This document shows, in pieces, positions 1,963 through 33,618 of a DNA stretch of 33,618 nucleotides. The stretch covers positions 1 through 33,618 of the IMG/VR virus record IMGVR_UViG_2698536590_000004, one strand, 5' to 3'. Position numbers and translations under genes: made by a program. The notes under the pieces are model-generated. The model was not told the DNA's origin. It saw only the letters and a list, made by a program, of their open reading frames with translations, and ran no database searches. This DNA comes from a virus (lineage: Duplodnaviria; Heunggongvirae; Uroviricota; Caudoviricetes). The stretch's first letter is position 1. Each line of letters begins with the position of its first letter.

Positions 1963-4434
1963 TTAAAAATCAGCCTGACTCGGGATCAGTTTTTGCCAGA
2001 TAGCTGAAACGTATTTTGCCTGGTAACGGGCGTCATCAAGTGCATTGTGGCGCTCACCTTCGAATGGAATATCCGTTCTGGCATCGAAGTCTATGGCTTT
2101 CCCCAGCTCAACGATTGTGCGTACATCGCGATCGTTGTAGTAACGCCACGGGCAGGGGATCCCCTGCCGTTCGTATGAACGGCGCAAAATCGTGTTGTCG
2201 AAGTTGGCTCCATTTCCCCAGACCTGAACAAAAAATTCACCGGAGTTTTCGTCGATAAATTCCCGCAATTGTAACAGTGCATCATCTAACGGGATTTCAT
2301 CGGTCATAATGGCAGATTGCGCTTCGCGTGATTGCTTAAGCCACCATTTAATGGTGTCCCGATCAATGACTCCGCCAGCAGTTTCCAGATCGATAGTCTT
2401 ACTAAATTCCGGTCCCATATCTCCGGTTTGCGGATCGAAAAATATTGCACCTATTGAGATAATCGGGGCATCAGGATTTTTTCCCATGGTTTCAAGGTCG
2501 ATCATTAGATGGTCACACGTCCTGCTGGTGGATGCGATAACGTGATGACCGTTCACCGTAATTAAGGGATCTGCCGTCTCGCCAGTTTCACTATCGCTGG
2601 CGTGATCCTGAGCGCTGCCAGCATTCTCCTTGTGTGGATGTTCAGCGCCTTCCATTTTCTCCGAATCGTCTTCCTGAACTTCAACCTGGTTCTTGTCATC
2701 GAATGTTTCCTGGTATGTTGCGTCGCCCATCACTGCACCACAATCAGGGCAGTTGCCGCCACCGCTTTGACCGCAGGCGGTGCAGATCTTTTCCGGTTCC
2801 TGTTGCACTACTGGTTCAGGTTGTTTCGTTTCTGGCTCGTTTTGTTGCGTATTTGGGCTGTTTTGTTCCGCTTTCTGGTCGTTCTGTTCCGTTTCTTGCT
2901 GGTTCTGGTTCACAGAATCGCGGGTTTCAATCCCCTTCACCCATTTCGGATCATTCGGATCGCTAATCCCTGCAACAAATTCACCACGTGATACTGCAAG
3001 CAGTTCATCGGCGTCAGGCTGGCTGATATTGGCTGCCTGCATAATTTTGTTTACTTCGTCAGCGGTAACTTTTACCGGCCCTGGTTGTGCGGTCGTGTCA
3101 GATGCACCAGTATTTTGTTGTGAACCTGAGTATGTACCGTTTTTGCGGGCGAAATATTCTTCTTTCGTGATTTCAGTAGCCCCGGCAGCCAGTGCCTTAT
3201 CCAGACCAGAAAGTTTGTTTGCGCGACCGTATTTTTCGCCATCCTTGTCGGTGAAGAGGAAGTAGAACGGCCCCTCACGCTCTACAGATGGTTCGACTTC
3301 CACTTTGCATTCGGTTTTTTCGTTGTCCGGAATTGCCGTTTCCACTGCATCAGTTTCTGGTACTGGCGACGAGAGAGTATCAGTTGCGCTCTGATTTCTT
3401 CCTTCATCTTCAAACACGCCCTTTGTAGTCAGGTATTCAGTAATGTATTTGTTCAGTGCTACTGGATCTTTGTGAATGTCGATCGGACGCTCACGGACAA
3501 GGCCAAAAATAGTCTGACGGTCGTAGCGAACGGCATCGGGTTGTTTGCGCATTGATGCGGAAATGCGCTTCCAGTCTTCGCGATCTTTGTCGATAACTTC
3601 ATTTTTTGCCCAGCGATGGATGCTGCCGTCAATGTTTCCGGCATTAATATCGCCAGGCCACAGAGCGTAGGCCAGTTCTTCATCCAGCGTTTTCCATGTC
3701 TGCTTGTATTCGCGATGAGTGGCAGCAATGACCGGGTTGATTTTTCCTGTTGAATTTTCAGTGTTCTGTTGATTGGCTCTGGCGCGGGCGAGATCAACAA
3801 CAGACGTGTATTTTCCGGTTTCCTTGCGTTCACCTTCGCGACGTTTTTTCCAGATGCGCATCTCTGCCTGAATTTCGGGCCATTTGGCACCAGGCTTACA
3901 TTTATGCTTAACCCACCCGATGGCATGCAGCTTAAGCTCCGGATACATGGCGTTAACTTCTGGCATTTTCATCAATGCTTCAACGATATGTCCGTCGAAT
4001 GTTGCCATGTCTTCCTGCAACAATTCCTGTGCGCTAATCACCATATCAACGGTGATGTTTTCACATGTGTCGAACTTAACCATGACAGCGTTCTGTACTT
4101 CAGGGGCCAGCTTGTCAAAAGTGACGTTCATCGGATCGGATTCAGTCTCAACCGGTACAAAGGAAGCAGACTCCTCATCCCAGCGGTTTTCCTGCATATA
4201 TTCAGCATCCCAGGAATCGAGGGCAGGGCGGGGTATACCGGGTTTATCCTCGCAAACAAGAAATTTATAAGCGCAGTCCTGAGCAGCCGGATAATGTTCC
4301 AGGAATTGCCAGTGAAATTTTGCGCGGGCGCGACGTTCATCACCGGCTTCAATGGCAGTGGCTACAGCGACTGCACCTTCTTCCTTTATTGCCTGTTCGT
4401 CCGGAATGGCGGCGCAAATAAAGACTTTACTCAT
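1963..4434 (-). CDS. Exodeoxyribonuclease VIII-like protein: RecE-like central region, Zn-ribbon, C-terminal DEDDh 3'-5' exonuclease domain
   Basis: 823-aa ORF. Central block LLAVSRGEFVAGISDPNDPKWVKGIETRD resembles E. coli RecE; CTACGQSGGGNCPDCG is a Cys4 ribbon; C-terminus has DEDDh-type motifs (MIDLETMG, WGNGANFD, HNALDDARY). Confidence 0.85.
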   Translation of the reverse strand: MSKVFICAAIPDEQAIKEEGAVAVATAIEAGDERRARAKFHWQFLEHYPAAQDCAYKFLVCEDKPGIPRPALDSWDAEYMQENRWDEESASFVPVETESDPMNVTFDKLAPEVQNAVMVKFDTCENITVDMVISAQELLQEDMATFDGHIVEALMKMPEVNAMYPELKLHAIGWVKHKCKPGAKWPEIQAEMRIWKKRREGERKETGKYTSVVDLARARANQQNTENSTGKINPVIAATHREYKQTWKTLDEELAYALWPGDINAGNIDGSIHRWAKNEVIDKDREDWKRISASMRKQPDAVRYDRQTIFGLVRERPIDIHKDPVALNKYITEYLTTKGVFEDEGRNQSATDTLSSPVPETDAVETAIPDNEKTECKVEVEPSVEREGPFYFLFTDKDGEKYGRANKLSGLDKALAAGATEITKEEYFARKNGTYSGSQQNTGASDTTAQPGPVKVTADEVNKIMQAANISQPDADELLAVSRGEFVAGISDPNDPKWVKGIETRDSVNQNQQETEQNDQKAEQNSPNTQQNEPETKQPEPVVQQEPEKICTACGQSGGGNCPDCGAVMGDATYQETFDDKNQVEVQEDDSEKMEGAEHPHKENAGSAQDHASDSETGETADPLITVNGHHVIASTSRTCDHLMIDLETMGKNPDAPIISIGAIFFDPQTGDMGPEFSKTIDLETAGGVIDRDTIKWWLKQSREAQSAIMTDEIPLDDALLQLREFIDENSGEFFVQVWGNGANFDNTILRRSYERQGIPCPWRYYNDRDVRTIVELGKAIDFDARTDIPFEGERHNALDDARYQAKYVSAIWQKLIPSQADF

Positions 4435-4526: not shown

Positions 4527-4718
4527 TTAAAGCCCTGCCGGGACTTCGTTATTATCCATGCGAATAACTTTATCGACCGGATAACAGTTACCGGGAATTT
4601 TCTGTTCCGCTGCGGCAGCCATGCATTCTTTCATTGAGCCGTATACGCCAGTAACCATGTCAACCGGTTCACCGGAAACAAGAAAAACCGTCAGAACAAG
4701 TGCAAATGTGGTATTCAT
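4527..4718 (-). CDS. Small secreted/membrane-anchored protein, unknown function
   Basis: 63 codons from ATG at 4718 (MNTTFALVLTVFLVSGEPVD..., hydrophobic N-terminus); AGGA 8 nt upstream; start overlaps the stop of the upstream gene as ATGA. Confidence 0.45.
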   Translation of the reverse strand: MNTTFALVLTVFLVSGEPVDMVTGVYGSMKECMAAAAEQKIPGNCYPVDKVIRMDNNEVPAGL

Positions 4719-4903
4719 TGCCAGTATCCTTTTTGAGTCGGACGTAAACGGGCCAGCATAGAAAGAATGCAAATTTGATTTAATAACTCCCGTTCGTGTT
4801 TTCTCTTATTAATGGCATCTTCAGTAAATACAGGGTTACTGATTCTGACACCAATTTCAAAACAACCTTCAGACGTATTAACGTTTGGTAATAACGTTTC
4901 CAT
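4715..4903 (-). CDS. Small hypothetical protein, first gene of the leftward early operon
   Basis: 62-aa ORF, same strand as the exonuclease, stop overlapping the next start. No recognisable family. Confidence 0.4.
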   Translation of the reverse strand: METLLPNVNTSEGCFEIGVRISNPVFTEDAINKRKHERELLNQICILSMLARLRPTQKGYWQ

Positions 4904-5439
4904 TATCGCGTCCTCAACAATGAATTTTGTGATGCGGTGCCTGGTGCCTCCAGGTGACGTTAACCAGTTAACAATTAACGCCGGATACAGGGAAACCCAT
5001 AAACACCCGATACGGGGGAACTAATCGCTTTTTAACTGTTCCGCGTGCGCTCAGCCGCATTCACCGCATCACAAAATTCACTTTAAAAAGGGCGGACATC
5101 AGCCAGCAATGAAACTGATGCCGCCAAAGGTACAAATCAACATGGAGTGTTGTAGCGGGGTTGTCACTCAGGCGTATGGTCAACCTGACAACCCGGTGCT
5201 ACCAGTGGGGGTAAGGATAACCCCGCCATACTTACCGCCGCGCCATTTCGCGGAGTGCCACAACCGGAAGCGCACGGTCGAAGATACCGGCGACACGCAA
5301 CAGAGGGAGAAATGACTTCGCCGTGCGCTTTCGTGTTGTGTGCCTGCTTTTAACCACGTCAGGCGAGGTGGTTCCTGTCATTCCCCAACGACAAGAAATC
5401 TGTATAATCTGGATATCCCCAACGATCCAAGGAAATCAT
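4904..5439. promoter_or_regulatory. Structured non-coding region between divergent early-left genes and the rightward accessory module
   Basis: Perfect 18-bp inverted repeat GAATTTTGTGATGCGGTG (4910-4927) / CACCGCATCACAAAATTC (5050-5067) flanking 122 bp; GTTAACCAGTTAAC (4947-4960); boxA-like CGCTTTTTAAC (5014-5024); hairpin GGGTTGTCA/TGACAACCC (5146-5182); 16-bp stem AAGCGCACGGTCGAAG/CTTCGCCGTGCGCTTT (5256-5319); TATAAT at 5391-5396. ORF-track ORFs here look spurious. Confidence 0.45.
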
Positions 5440-5586
5440 ATGACAGAGCAAAGAGCACAAGCAGGTGGTGGCAATTCGACACATAAAACAGTCTGGGATC
5501 ACATACCAGAGAAAAACATTCGACCAAAACCATCTCCAGCTCCTTCGGAGGAGAGGGGGAACAGCAACAACCAAACAAGCAGGTGA
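5440..5586 (+). CDS. Small hydrophilic protein (48 aa), possible first gene of the rightward accessory module
   Basis: ATG at 5440 with AGGAAA upstream; stop lies inside the RBS of the next gene. Low complexity, could be non-coding. Confidence 0.3.
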   Translation: MTEQRAQAGGGNSTHKTVWDHIPEKNIRPKPSPAPSEERGNSNNQTSR

Positions 5587-5592
5587 TGATGT

Positions 5593-6039
5593 ATGGACCG
5601 GGATGATATTCTTGACAGAATTTTATATGGCTATTTTCTTGAGCAACTATTTTCTGTAGCGACTGGTCGTCTCGATAAACTTCTCTCAGTGGTGAGTATT
5701 ATCCTCGGTTCATCTGTCATTGGCGGATTCATTCCGGAAATTTCTGGCGTTTTTATTGTTGTGATCGCAACCGTCCAAACGATTTATGGATTCGGACAAA
5801 AGTCAGGTAACGCCATGAGAAAATCCGCAGAATATTTGCAGCTTTTTGATGATGCAGAAAAATATTCTGATTCTGAATTGAAAATGCAGTTAAAAATTCT
5901 GGAAAAAACGGATGATCATATTTGGTCATCACTTAAAGATATTGCGATCTTAAAAACACAGATCAAAATAGGCGTTTCCATCGAACAACAAGAGAAGCTG
6001 CCCACAAAATCTAAATTGATGCGATTTCTTTGTGGTTAG
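5593..6039 (+). CDS. Two-TM membrane protein, unknown function (possible superinfection-exclusion/abortive-infection type)
   Basis: 148-aa ORF with AGGTGA RBS; two adjacent hydrophobic helices (LLSVVSIILGSSVIGGFI, ISGVFIVVIATVQTIYGF) then a charged C-terminal domain; opposite strand to the early-left operon. Confidence 0.6.
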   Translation: MDRDDILDRILYGYFLEQLFSVATGRLDKLLSVVSIILGSSVIGGFIPEISGVFIVVIATVQTIYGFGQKSGNAMRKSAEYLQLFDDAEKYSDSELKMQLKILEKTDDHIWSSLKDIAILKTQIKIGVSIEQQEKLPTKSKLMRFLCG

Positions 6040-6504: not shown

Positions 6505-6734
6505 CAGTCAGTATTTCTGGATAACCAGCGACGCGCGCCAGCTTCGGTTTTAAACGTTTTGCTTTTGGTATACGTCATCGCGGTGAACGTACCGTCCTGG
6601 TTGGGAAACACGCCACATACCAGAGATTCGCTGTTGCCAAGATCGATAGTATCCATGTTGACCTCATTTCCCCTTAACGCCGGGGTAGCGGAACAAAAAC
6701 CTGCTGCATAGTTAAAGTTGAACCCTGCCGTCAT
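6504..6734 (-). CDS. Small hypothetical protein (76 aa, or 50 aa from the internal start at 6656)
   Basis: Downstream of and co-oriented with cI; both in-frame ATGs (6734 and 6656) have plausible GAGG-type RBS. No family I can name. Confidence 0.5.
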   Translation of the reverse strand: MTAGFNFNYAAGFCSATPALRGNEVNMDTIDLGNSESLVCGVFPNQDGTFTAMTYTKSKTFKTEAGARRWLSRNTD

Positions 6735-6945: not shown

Positions 6946-7584
6946 TTAAATATCTTGTTGAATTTTAAAGCATACGCCCAATATGCAAGATAGATCATCC
7001 AGCATAATTGAAGGGTAGCGAGGATTCGTGGGGACTAAAAGAATATCCGGCCCTTCTATCTCCAGTTTACGAATGACAGGTGTTGTGGTCCCTTTGGGTA
7101 AGGCAAGGACAATATTTCCTGGTTGTACGGTTCGATCGGGATCAACAAAAACTGTTGAACCATTTGGGATGGAAACTCCCCCACCAGATGTTGACATACT
7201 GTCACTCTCTAGAACAACTGCAAAGGTATTGGCCGGGATTTCTCCGACAAGCTGCACACAAGAGGTTATTGAGGAATTTTTCATATAATCACTCCAGCTT
7301 GCTGCCTGCTGAAGTGATAGTAGCGGAACCGTTTTTATCGGCGGTAAAGATAGATCAAGCGAATCACCTGTATTTAACTCTCCTCCATTAAGAAGCCAAT
7401 TTTCGTTTACTTTCAATATCTTTGCCAGTGAACTTATGTAACGCGAGGACGGCGCTCCTCCACCGTTCATCCATTGACTTACGGAGCCTTTTGATGCGCC
7501 AGTGGCATTGACAAGGTCTTTGCCTTTCAGGTTTAGCGCATGCATACGTTGGGTTATGCGTTCAGATATTGTTTGCTTGCTCAT
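6946..7584 (-). CDS. CI-like prophage repressor: N-terminal XRE-type HTH plus C-terminal S24 (LexA-like) peptidase domain
   Basis: 212-aa ORF; N-terminal region (ISERITQRMHALNLKGKDLVNATGASKGSVSQWMNG) reads as an HTH; the C-terminal half reads as an S24 autopeptidase domain with candidate catalytic Ser (ESDSM) and Lys (VIRKL); divergent from the cro-like gene. Confidence 0.9.
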   Translation of the reverse strand: MSKQTISERITQRMHALNLKGKDLVNATGASKGSVSQWMNGGGAPSSRYISSLAKILKVNENWLLNGGELNTGDSLDLSLPPIKTVPLLSLQQAASWSDYMKNSSITSCVQLVGEIPANTFAVVLESDSMSTSGGGVSIPNGSTVFVDPDRTVQPGNIVLALPKGTTTPVIRKLEIEGPDILLVPTNPRYPSIMLDDLSCILGVCFKIQQDI

Positions 7585-7675
7585 GTTTTGATTTTAAAAC
7601 ACAGATGGTTTTGTTTCTTGACTTTCTTTGGTTTTGATTATTAAACTTTTGGCATTCAGTTTTATGGAGCGACTC
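7585..7675. promoter_or_regulatory. Divergent promoter/operator region between cI-like and cro-like genes
   Basis: 91-bp AT-rich spacer with three GTTTTG(A/T)TT repeats, a GTTTTgattttAAAAC palindrome, TTGACT (7618-7623) as candidate -35 for rightward transcription and GGAG RBS before the cro-like ATG. Confidence 0.5.
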
Positions 7676-7906
7676 ATGAAAAAATCAGAAGTATTAGGCT
7701 ATTTTGGCGGAGTTGTTAAAACAGCCGCAGCTCTAGGAACGTCAAAAACCACAGTCAGCATGTGGGGGGAAGAGGTTCCGTGGAAATGGGCGTTGCTAAT
7801 TCAGGCAGTCACTGCCGGGGCGCTCAAATATGAGTTACACATACCGACGGTTGTCATTCCCGGTTCTGATCATAATCCGCCTTCTAACCAAGGGGGGGAT
7901 TCATGA
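7676..7906 (+). CDS. Cro-like HTH regulator (YdaS-like)
   Basis: 76 aa from ATG at 7676 (MKKSEVLGYFGGVVKTAAALGTSKTTVSMW...), an HTH pattern; divergent from the repressor; stop overlaps the next start (ATGA). Confidence 0.75.
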   Translation: MKKSEVLGYFGGVVKTAAALGTSKTTVSMWGEEVPWKWALLIQAVTAGALKYELHIPTVVIPGSDHNPPSNQGGDS

Positions 7907-12950: not shown

Positions 12951-13161
12951 TTTTATATTGGCGAGGTGACGTGAGTTAAGTAGAATTGCTGCGGGTGATT
13001 GAGGCTATCTGCCTCAGGCATGAACACCAAAGGCAGATAGAGAAAAGCCCCAGTTAACATTACGCGTCCTGCAAGACGCTTAACATTAATCTGAGGCTCA
13101 ATCTATGAACAGCAAATCTAGGTTAGCCTCTTACGTGCCGGAAGGCAAGGAGAAGCAGGCT

Positions 13162-13317
13162 ATGAAGCAGCAAAAGGCGATGTTAATCGCCCTGATCGTC
13201 ATCTGTTTAACCGTCATAGTGACGGCACTGGTAACGAGGAAAGACCTCTGCGAGGTACGAATCCGAACCGGCCAGACGGAGGTCGCTGTCTTCACAGCTT
13301 ACGAACCTGAGGAGTAA
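13162..13317 (+). CDS. hok: Hok/Gef-family type I toxin (HokD/RelF-like, 51 aa)
   Basis: MKQQKAMLIALIVICLTVIVTALVTRKDLCEVRIRTGQTEVAVFTAYEPEE matches the Hok family and, as I recall it, E. coli HokD; AAGGAG RBS; in-frame upstream extension to 13105 also open. Confidence 0.85.
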   Translation: MKQQKAMLIALIVICLTVIVTALVTRKDLCEVRIRTGQTEVAVFTAYEPEE

Positions 13318-15578: not shown

Positions 15579-15608
15579 TTGACCAGACACATTGTCCGGG
15601 GCTATATT
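15579..15608 (+). promoter_or_regulatory. Candidate late promoter PR' (sigma70 -35/-10)
   Basis: TTGACC (15579-15584), 18-bp spacer, TATATT (about 15603-15608), immediately after the Q stop; small hairpins follow (qut-like region). Confidence 0.55.
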
Positions 15609-15668
15609 CCTCACGCGCCAGCAAAATCTGGCGTCGGGATTGGCGTCCCGGATGAAAAAGGCGACAAC

Positions 15669-15690
15669 AGACGCGCCAGCGTCTTTTTTA
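15669..15690 (+). terminator. Intrinsic terminator tR'-like (target of Q antitermination)
   Basis: AGACGC-gcca-GCGTCT stem-loop followed by TTTTTT, about 60 nt after the candidate PR'. Confidence 0.6.
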
Positions 15691-15847
15691 TTGTCGTTTG
15701 CACTGTCACATCTCAATGGTGGGCTGTGTGGGGGCGGAGCGATCCGCGCCGGTTCCTTTTTCCCGGTTACGCCAACCCTGCACAGTTCACCACCATACTG
15801 ATTGGCGTCAGCAGTGGTGATGATTCACATAGAAAAAGGATCATCCT

Positions 15848-33037: not shown

Positions 33038-33618
33038 TGGCATTCAGAATGAGTGAACAACCACGGACCATAAAAATTTATAATCTGCTGGCCGGAACTA
33101 ATGAATTTATTGGTGAAGGTGACGCATATATTCCGCCTCATACCGGTCTGCCTGCAAACAGTACCGATATTGCACCGCCAGATATTCCGGCTGGCTTTGT
33201 GGCTGTTTTCAACAGTGATGAGGCATCGTGGCATCTCGTTGAAGACCATCGGGGTAAAACCGTCTATGACGTGGCTTCCGGCGACGCGTTATTTATTTCT
33301 GAACTCGGTCCGTTACCGGAAAATTTTACCTGGTTATCGCCGGGAGGGGAATATCAGAAGTGGAACGGCACAGCCTGGGTGAAGGATACGGAAGCAGAAA
33401 AACTGTTCCGGATCCGGGAGGCGGAAGAAACAAAAAAAAGCCTGATGCAGGTAGCCAGTGAGCATATTGCGCCGCTTCAGGATGCTGCAGATCTGGAAAT
33501 TGCAACGGAGGAAGAAACCTCGTTGCTGGAAGCCTGGAAGAAGTATCGGGTATTGCTGAACCGTGTTGATACATCAACTGCACCTGATATTGAGTGGCCG
33601 ACTTCACCTGCAGAGTAA
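33037..33618 (+). CDS. tfa: Tail fibre assembly protein Tfa
   Basis: 193-aa ORF beginning [41 protein letters not shown], closely resembling lambda Tfa as I recall it; start overlaps the stf stop (TAATG); ends with TAA at the window edge. Confidence 0.9.

Follow-up and report, generated by a model that had tools for sequence, protein, structure and literature searches.

The stretch of DNA analysed here (the window) comprises the 33,618 nucleotides (nt) of the IMG/VR virus record IMGVR_UViG_2698536590_000004 (Caudoviricetes), and the element in question is a densely structured segment at positions 4904–5439. Most of this segment, 4904–5340, is probably the RNase-processed, untranslated centre of a leftward early operon of the Qin/dicBF type and acts as RNA of the minus strand. 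The arrangement is largely known as the dicBF processing region, and one of its components is under-described, namely an RNase III-flanked domain of the STnc100 class. A preliminary description of the same DNA had offered three options: an early promoter/operator with an antitermination site, a structured small RNA, or an invertible promoter segment. The second was upheld in part, with the difference that the minus strand is concerned and that two RNAs together with processing helices are present; the other two were not borne out.

Annotation and alignment placed 4904–5340 on the minus strand as the untranslated middle of the leftward operon, in which the order is pL-like promoter, DUF1391/ydfA-like gene, structured region, dicB, DUF1482 gene, exonuclease, xis and int. 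The segment had been described as lying between the leftward operon and a rightward module; 4904–5340 instead sits inside the operon, and only 5341–5439 adjoins a small rightward insert. An identical stretch in Escherichia coli NS-NP030 carries the same annotation, with xis and int adjoining. By megablast, lambdoid phages and 4,733 of the 5,426 complete E. coli genomes contain similar DNA, in every case together with dicB, and the exact variant (at least 99% identity) occurred in ~60 of 20,395 E. coli records. From ~5340 through dicF to dicB the region is collinear with K-12 Qin and with phage Tritos at a mean column identity of 86%, and the Tritos record annotates DicF at the corresponding position. 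Folding of the minus strand was compared with that of dinucleotide shuffles and gave z = −6.2 for 4860–5145 and z = −4.0 for 5085–5350. That no convincing open reading frame (ORF) is present was confirmed, the 68-aa ORF that RefSeq calls in the identical genome (5109–5315, plus strand) having no Pfam family. This hypothetical ORF lies antisense to DicF and the conserved leader, has a marginal partial PHROG match and is probably a spurious call.

The region shares with the ydfC-dicF-dicB interval of Qin (also of Tritos, mEp460 and others) the order of its parts, in which the leader helix is followed by the conserved hairpin, by DicF and its terminator, by the long-stem domain and by dicB and the DUF1482/ydfD gene, and in both systems the two long helices coincide with RNase III ends reported for K-12. 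It differs from Qin in that 12 nt are inserted into the variable arm and in that the 5′ part of DicF is shorter and divergent and its loop altered, and the Qin genes ydfB and ydfC are replaced in the window by other genes, including a rightward insert of two ORFs.

The inverted repeat of the preliminary description is the closing helix (P1) of an STnc100/PasD-type domain. Its arms (4921–4939 and 5062–5080) are 100% complementary and enclose 122 nt, as had been stated, but measure 19 rather than 18 nt; by our own arithmetic (~5e5 arm pairs in 1 kb × 4^−19) the chance expectation of such a pair is ~2e-6. As RNA, the helix grows to 21 bp (4919–4939/5062–5082) through one G·U and one A-U pair. The 19-nt arms are fully Watson-Crick in the window, whereas K-12 has two G·U pairs, and in the P1 extension locus L083 changes U-A to C-G and A-U to G-C. 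In K-12 and Tritos the repeat is imperfect as DNA, yet it remains paired as RNA through G·U. Because of the compensatory changes in L083 and the G·U pairs in K-12 and Tritos, the extended P1 is taken to be selected as RNA and not as a DNA repeat.

Two readings in which the repeats act as DNA were weighed against this evidence. The arms could bound a small mobile element as its terminal inverted repeats, or could form a cruciform or mark a hotspot of recombination, with the RNA folds incidental; in favour of this, the element is a modular unit placed where the mosaic modules of phages join, and its arms are perfect in the window copy. This is very improbable: the arms carry no target-site duplication (left, AACAA; right, CTTTA), covariation preserves RNA pairing in a strand-specific manner, many G·U pairs included, RNase III ends are reported in K-12, and free-standing copies of the domain have stems of 6–10 bp only. 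The 122-bp segment could also be invertible DNA bounded by the 19-bp repeats, for example a phase-variable promoter flipped by a recombinase, with which the perfect repeat and the integrase encoded ~3.3 kb away would agree. A synthetic inverted query was therefore set against the 5,426 E. coli genomes, 4,642 of which gave a match; at a query coverage of at least 80% the inverted form was found in 0 of the 4,642 and the native orientation in 3,945. Relatives keep the helix by G·U pairs, which would count as mismatches in repeated DNA, the interior is conserved as RNA in a strand-specific manner, and no invertase gene is adjacent, the neighbours being dicB, the DUF1482 gene, the exonuclease gene and small ORFs, with only the prophage integrase at hand. 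Inversion is thus regarded as a negligible possibility.

Membership of the domain in the STnc100 family was assessed with Rfam and with a covariance model built for the purpose. In a permissive Rfam run, 4871–5092 of the minus strand matched RF02076 (STnc100) with 37.0 bits (E = 5.5e-6), which falls under the gathering score of 47; the K-12 homologue scored 34.4 bits and the copy of phage P7 43 bits. Model R1 was built from 33 diverse copies, Rfam-positive ones included. For the window copy it returned 84.2 bits (E = 1e-18) with the minus strand and 7.5 bits with the plus strand, and no second copy was found in the window; this copy is itself one of the seeds, so this score is partly by construction, and the support independent of R1 is the Rfam match. 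The shared fold and motifs (P1, P2, P4, P5 and the junction sequences) are present in the window copy, and the P4 loop segment UUAACUG (4965–4971) is the 3′ strand of the pseudoknot. The two GTTAAC palindromes (4959–4964 and 4967–4972), correctly recorded before, are the stem of the P4 hairpin and the pseudoknot strand; the hexamer is not enriched across the window (6 found, 7.6 expected), and the two sites therefore matter only for their pairing partners. The core was also compared by eye with known riboswitch, ribozyme, tRNA-like, 5S-like and CsrA-sponge motifs, with no convincing match, and none is claimed.

For the family as a whole, viral contigs were scanned for the conserved 3′ motif CACCNGGAGGCACCNGGCAC, which yielded 120 loci and 87 distinct elements. 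Copies found in this way score 69–161 bits as STnc100 in Rfam, and the family is therefore STnc100. The common architecture consists of P1 (…GGUG/CACC…) followed by AAU, P2, which has a bulged A and a UNNGC loop, a strand that forms the pseudoknot with the P4 loop, a variable arm that differs in length and sequence across the alignments, GCG, P4, and P5 with the consensus CCNGG-AGGCA-CCNGG, stacked on P1. With STnc100/PasD (PasD1/PasD2) the window copy shares the GGUGAAU junction, the UNNGC loop of P2, the pseudoknot, P4, the CACCNGGAGGCACCNGGCACC hairpin and the closing helix.

Among 93 distinct sequences, 97.1% of cells were paired, against 35–48% with slid partners; 15 of the 23 pairs varied on both sides, and the observed values were matched in 0 of 500 shuffles. 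The helices thus covary in the family, and the pseudoknot is kept. Three pairs of P2 flip between C-G and G-C (45–49 versus 34–38 rows) in a helix that is 99.1% paired, all four outer pairs of P4 vary on both sides, and the free pattern positions of P5 are G/C in 59 and U/A in 26 of 85 unique parsed copies and never unpaired (helix 100% paired). The pseudoknot was analysed by per-sequence parsing and not by column-wise counts on the model alignment, which are unusable here: the loop register is not the same in all subfamilies, and the dicB type offers two UUAA partners. Parsed in this way, at least 15 different complementary sequence pairs keep the strand-to-loop pairing; a cruder test of own versus foreign partners gave 7.2 versus 5.2 contiguous pairs. 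The Rfam structure line for RF02076 does not mark this pseudoknot. The dicF-dicB and dicF-kil spacers seem, on this evidence, to belong to the STnc100 family, a modest point that appears to be new; a literature search found no paper linking STnc100 with dicF or dicB.

STnc100 and PasD are Hfq-dependent prophage small RNAs (sRNAs) encoded near Q, stx2 and lysis genes, with Hfq-dependent accumulation reported (PMC8550237). Canonical members are free-standing late-region genes (near Q, stx2, lysis genes and tRNA clusters) with a 6–10-bp P1, a single-stranded tail and their own terminator. Free-standing copies were also the majority here; in these a P1 of 6–10 bp is followed by a 20–45-nt tail and an intrinsic terminator, with no gene, and such copies often have a terminator and a promoter-like sequence upstream; some occur in tandem. 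Copies embedded in the early-left operon always follow a DicF-like terminator hairpin and have the gene of a division inhibitor downstream, dicB at 15 nt or a Rac-type kil at 31 nt, and only in these is P1 lengthened to ~21 bp. The window copy differs from the canonical form accordingly: it is embedded in the early-left operon, has a 21-bp P1 but neither tail nor terminator, runs into the dicB ribosome-binding site (RBS) and has a sub-threshold Rfam score. It is preceded by the DicF terminator, the dicB AUG lies 15 nt beyond the 21-bp helix, and no terminator follows. Judged by the features of a free-standing sRNA gene (own promoter, 3′ single-stranded tail, intrinsic terminator), the window domain is not one.

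A scan of one genome per species gave confirmed copies in Escherichia, Shigella, Salmonella, Citrobacter, Enterobacter, Klebsiella, Kosakonia, Pantoea, Erwinia, Rahnella and others; a few matches in unrelated phyla are probably due to chance. Arrays of up to five or six copies occur within 1–1.5 kb, for example on a Pantoea plasmid. Tandem arrays of 3–6 domains were recorded at L178 950–2010 (minus strand; the Pantoea plasmid), L206 6401–7833, L225 4138–5926, L014 2326–3350 and L030 373–988. Multi-domain transcripts are suggested in Pantoea, where a single promoter and a single terminator seem to serve two or three domains whose closing helices differ. Free-standing copies often adjoin phage tRNA clusters (L005 8044–8560, L028 2795–3798, L030 342–1253 and, in phage P7, L125 1705–3435), and the sub-threshold copy of P7 has tRNA genes on one side and terB on the other, within the ban operon. 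When the genes beside 249 family copies were clustered, no constant protein partner emerged; the neighbours included dicB, kil, holin-like, esterase-like, outer-membrane and other genes.

The position of the domain also admits a reading in which it is mainly a cis-acting 5′ leader of dicB (of kil in relatives) and not a released RNA. A rigid fold would then govern translation, the stability of the mRNA or the access of Rho, and might do so by responding to a ligand or protein. The domain lies 15 nt upstream of the dicB AUG, 31 nt upstream of kil and, in phage P7, 38 nt upstream of terB. Modelling of the full-length RNA predicts a paired dicB RBS, and conservation is high in loops and unpaired nucleotides, as would suit a binding pocket. 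Most family members are nevertheless free-standing, with a terminator within 20–45 nt and no gene, and accumulate as Hfq-dependent sRNAs (PMC8550237). The genes downstream are diverse, kil-type copies leave the RBS unmasked, and the 21-bp extension, confined to embedded copies, better fits an RNase III site. The leader function, which overlaps with processing of the operon RNA, is on balance considered rather unlikely as the principal one.

The antitermination option had been based on a boxA-like motif, and CGCTTTTTAAC is indeed present at 5026–5036. The motif is, however, antisense to the operon. Its CGCTTT half lies in the 12-nt insertion that is absent from K-12 Qin and Tritos, and its TTAAC half is the conserved pseudoknot strand (overlapping 5032–5038); of all the loci fetched, the identical genome copy alone has the full motif at the corresponding position. 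An early promoter/operator with a nut-like site, or a put-like RNA that modifies RNA polymerase, would also agree with the hairpins nearby, with a TATAAT at 5403–5408 upstream of a rightward ORF, and with free-standing family members some of which begin directly after promoter-like sequences. Against this, the repressor, Cro and the pL/pR-like promoters lie ~1.5–2.5 kb to the right of the region, the promoter scan called no site in 4904–5439, and a search of the genome of HK022, the put prototype, found none of the family core motifs. Both lambda nut (boxA/boxB) and HK022 put are structured RNAs of lambdoid early operons, as is proposed for the region. In contrast with nut, the region has no sense-strand boxA and no boxB-type hairpin beside it; with put, which consists of two stems in ~70 nt, there is no sequence relation, and the window domain follows a terminator instead of preceding one. 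The domain cannot suppress the DicF terminator because it lies downstream of it. A nut- or put-like role is hence judged most improbable.

The terminator in question belongs to a divergent DicF. The full-length match to Rfam RF00039 at 5090–5138 (minus strand) scored 38.7 bits (E = 2e-6), under the gathering score of 48, compared with 76.7 bits for K-12 DicF. The position fits a dicBF-type operon, in that the RNA comes after the conserved leader, ends at an intrinsic terminator and precedes dicB. Its 5′ part is 8 nt shorter than in K-12 and of other sequence, whereas the terminator hairpin and U-tract are retained. DicF is an sRNA that inhibits cell division, and in K-12 it blocks ftsZ and manX. 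When loop pairing with the ftsZ site CGGAGAGAAAC was examined by hand, K-12 DicF paired at 10 of 11 positions and window DicF at 8 of 11, only 5 of them contiguous. Whole-molecule duplex energy with the ftsZ leader is a non-discriminating measure (window −32.0, shuffle mean −33.0; K-12 weakly better than its shuffles). With its different 5′ seed and loop, window DicF may have targets other than those of K-12 DicF. DicF-like variants were also seen upstream of the STnc100-like domain at L012, L017, L023, L053, L066, L069 and L083; they have in common the terminator stem GGCGG…CCGCC and the U-tract and differ in their 5′ segments and loops, which suggests that target specificity has diversified among prophages.

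Upstream of DicF, the 16-bp interrupted stem enclosing ~33 nt that had been described exists, but it is part of an interrupted helix of ~24 bp (5259–5283/5316–5340) that encloses 32 nt. This leader helix has 21 conserved pairs across dicB-type and kil-type loci, 5 of them with compensatory changes. The hairpin with a 9-bp stem was likewise found (5158–5166/5186–5194); comparison of the window with K-12 and Tritos shows only three differences in it, all of them in its loop, and it is kept in dicB-type loci.

In K-12, a 190-nt DicF precursor owes its 5′ end to RNase III, and the 53-nt form is made by RNase E (bioRxiv 10.1101/2023.04.14.536235), and RNase III processing of the full-length transcript gives an alternative 3′ end and a 72-nt DicF (PMC9438474 and PMC5069750, citing Faubladier 1990). 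The intergenic regions of dicA-dicF-dicB have been catalogued as substrates of RNase III; in transcriptome-wide RNase III papers dicF appeared only by citation, with no sites given for the dicF-dicB spacer. Coordinates were transferred through the alignment, by which the 5′ end of the 190-nt form maps to window position 5270, within the leader helix (3′ arm), and the 3′ end of the 72-nt form to 5071, within P1 (5′ arm). At both homologous positions the window has a double-stranded helix of at least 20 bp, the leader helix (~24 bp) and P1 (21 bp). From the alignment, both long helices appear to be homologues of the known K-12 sites, and by analogy the same cuts would be expected in this prophage. 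They are comparable to the RNase III helices of the 16S/23S rRNA stems, metY-nusA, the T7 early sites and the lambda N leader, in which the flanks of a folded RNA pair over at least ~20 bp. Cutting of such flanking helices by RNase III separates the products and alters the fate of the downstream mRNA. The present case differs from these in that the cargo is a domain of ~140 nt and in that cleavage is documented through the K-12 DicF ends only, and not for the domain or the dicB mRNA.

If 4904–5340 is the processed centre of the operon RNA, transcripts would probably start at the pL-like promoter, the leader helix would form first, and an RNase III cut in it would give the 5′ end of a long DicF precursor, which RNase E would trim to a short DicF-type sRNA (5090–5138) ending at its own terminator. 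Read-through of this terminator would produce the 138-nt STnc100/PasD-family domain, with four helices, a pseudoknot and the 21-bp closing helix. RNase III usually leaves a 2-nt 3′ overhang, and a cut at 5071/5070 would therefore imply a partner cut at 4929/4928. Such a staggered double cut in P1 would yield DicF-72, a free domain of ~142 nt (5070–4929) and a dicB mRNA with a ~25-nt leader; the free domain would retain a 9-bp P1 stub, equal to the P1 length of free-standing copies. In the thermodynamic model, the dicB RBS is predicted to be paired with the U-tract of the DicF terminator in the read-through RNA (unpaired probability 0.04–0.11), and its unpaired probability after the modelled cut is ~0.93. 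RNase III cutting may in this way free the dicB RBS, and the released domain may have a function of its own. We tentatively suggest that Qin-type dicBF operons, K-12 included, make a third, overlooked RNA of ~140 nt, excised by RNase III and of the STnc100/PasD class. If so, the conserved core, the arrays and the use in both free-standing and embedded form would point to a self-contained function, such as binding of a protein or small molecule, beyond seed pairing.

Several points weigh against processing of this kind in the prophage. Between the pL-like promoter and the structured region lie ~700 nt with two rightward ORFs (5440–6039), within which the terminator scan found two weak terminator-like sites on the minus strand; leftward transcription into 4904–5340 is an assumption because these ORFs and sites intervene. 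For this prophage the reading is assumed by homology with K-12, from which all the transcript support comes, and the 190- and 72-nt sizes are K-12 gel and primer-extension estimates taken from later papers, so that the mapping is accurate to a few nt. The DicF variant may not act like DicF because of its sub-threshold score, the missing K-12 5′ seed and the altered ftsZ-pairing loop. The pairing that would mask the RBS consists of weak U·G and U-A pairs, and kil-type relatives do not mask theirs. Cleavage by RNase III can start decay of downstream mRNA, as in metY-nusA, and the effect on dicB could therefore have either sign. Released domains would also be without the 3′ tail and terminator of the free-standing STnc100/PasD sRNAs.

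The main value of the analysis is clarification: an apparent switch or control site proved to be the well-studied DicF processing region on the other strand, and no new mechanism is therefore needed. The Rfam threshold misses the STnc100/PasD membership of the dicF-dicB/kil spacer, and recognition of this link ties an orphan sRNA family to a locus with documented and easily tested RNase III processing. The covarying pseudoknot and the arrays in many Enterobacterales make the STnc100/PasD family a reasonable candidate for structural and functional work.

Table 1. Features of the structured region and of neighbouring genes, in window coordinates.
Feature	Position	Strand	Evidence or remark
Exonuclease	1966–4434	−	Pfam
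DUF1482/YdfD-like protein	4530–4721	−	Pfam
DicB, 62 aa, cell-division inhibitor	4718–4903	−	Pfam DicB PF05358, 123 bits, full length; RefSeq dicB in identical genome
dicB Shine-Dalgarno GAGGA	4912–4916	−	8 nt upstream of AUG, a few nt below base of long helix
P1 3′ arm CACCGCAUCACAAAAUUCAUU, left repeat copy	4919–4939	−	Relatives with compensatory and wobble changes
Core STnc100/PasD domain, 138 nt (P1 stub, P2, pseudoknot, variable arm, P4, P5)	4932–5069	−	RF02076 and covariance model R1
P5 hairpin CCUGG-AGGCA-CCAGG, stacked directly on P1	4940–4954	−	Most conserved motif of the family
P4 hairpin, stem CGUUAA/UUAACG (4975–4980/4958–4963), loop UUGUUAACUGG	4958–4980	−	Covariation
Variable arm	4982–5031	−	12-nt insertion relative to K-12 and Tritos
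Pseudoknot 5′ strand CAGUUAA	5032–5038	−	Pairs with 4965–4971
P2 hairpin UGCGGC-UGAGC-GCACGCG, UNNGC pentaloop, bulged A	5042–5059	−	Covariation
P1 5′ arm AGUGAAUUUUGUGAUGCGGUG, right repeat copy	5062–5082	−	Contains homologue of RNase III cut of K-12 72-nt DicF (~5071)
Divergent DicF sRNA (5090–5138), terminator hairpin (5095–5122), U5 tract (5085–5089)	5085–5138	−	Rfam RF00039, terminator scan, dicB synteny
Conserved hairpin GGGUUGUCA...UGACAACCC	5158–5194	−	Within region homologous to 190-nt DicF precursor
Leader helix, ~24 bp, arms 5316–5340 and 5259–5283	5259–5340	−	Minimum-free-energy fold; conserved pairs
Qin-homology junction	5341–5439	.	Alignment; Shine-Dalgarno for rightward 48-aa ORF starting at 5440
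DUF1391/YdfA-like protein	6507–6734	−	Pfam
pL-like promoter	6861–6833	−	Promoter scan
cI-like S24 repressor	6949–7584	−	Pfam
Cro	7628–7903	+	Pfam

At the junction with the Qin-homologous part (5341–5439), a small hairpin (5352–5373, minus strand) and the TATAAT at 5403–5408 (plus strand) are present, the latter flanked by a 10-nt direct repeat TCCCCAACGA at 5382–5391 and 5416–5425. The promoter scan called no site in 5341–5439, and promoter function of the TATAAT is put forward as a suggestion. A module of ~37 nt, CCACCUCGCCUGAYGUGGYUAAAAGCAGGCACAYAAC, is found at 5345–5375 (minus strand) and also at L022, L043, L058, L074, L100 and L004-type loci; it stands before the RNase III leader helix in some dicF loci and before a different STnc100-type element in the L004 type, and two alternative small hairpins are possible in it. 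Two rightward ORFs, 5440–5586 and 5593–6039 (both plus strand), are inserted where K-12 has ydfB and ydfC. The first encodes a 48-aa low-complexity protein; the second encodes 148 aa with hydrophobic stretches suggestive of membrane segments and matches only phrog_6315. Because these ORFs sit in the leftward operon, leftward transcripts must traverse the insert antisense.

Elsewhere in the window, the sok antitoxin RNA was matched at 12993–13167 (plus strand; Rfam RF01794, 101 bits, above the gathering score), which implies a hok/sok-type toxin–antitoxin locus in the prophage. At 15602–15797 (plus strand) a c4-a1b1 target element, isrK and the C4 antisense RNA follow one another, all above their Rfam gathering scores, and this is a P1/P7-type immI (c4/ant) antirepressor control module in a lambdoid prophage. 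An IS009 RNA family match of 224 bits lies at 33380–33578 (plus strand), at the right end of the window.

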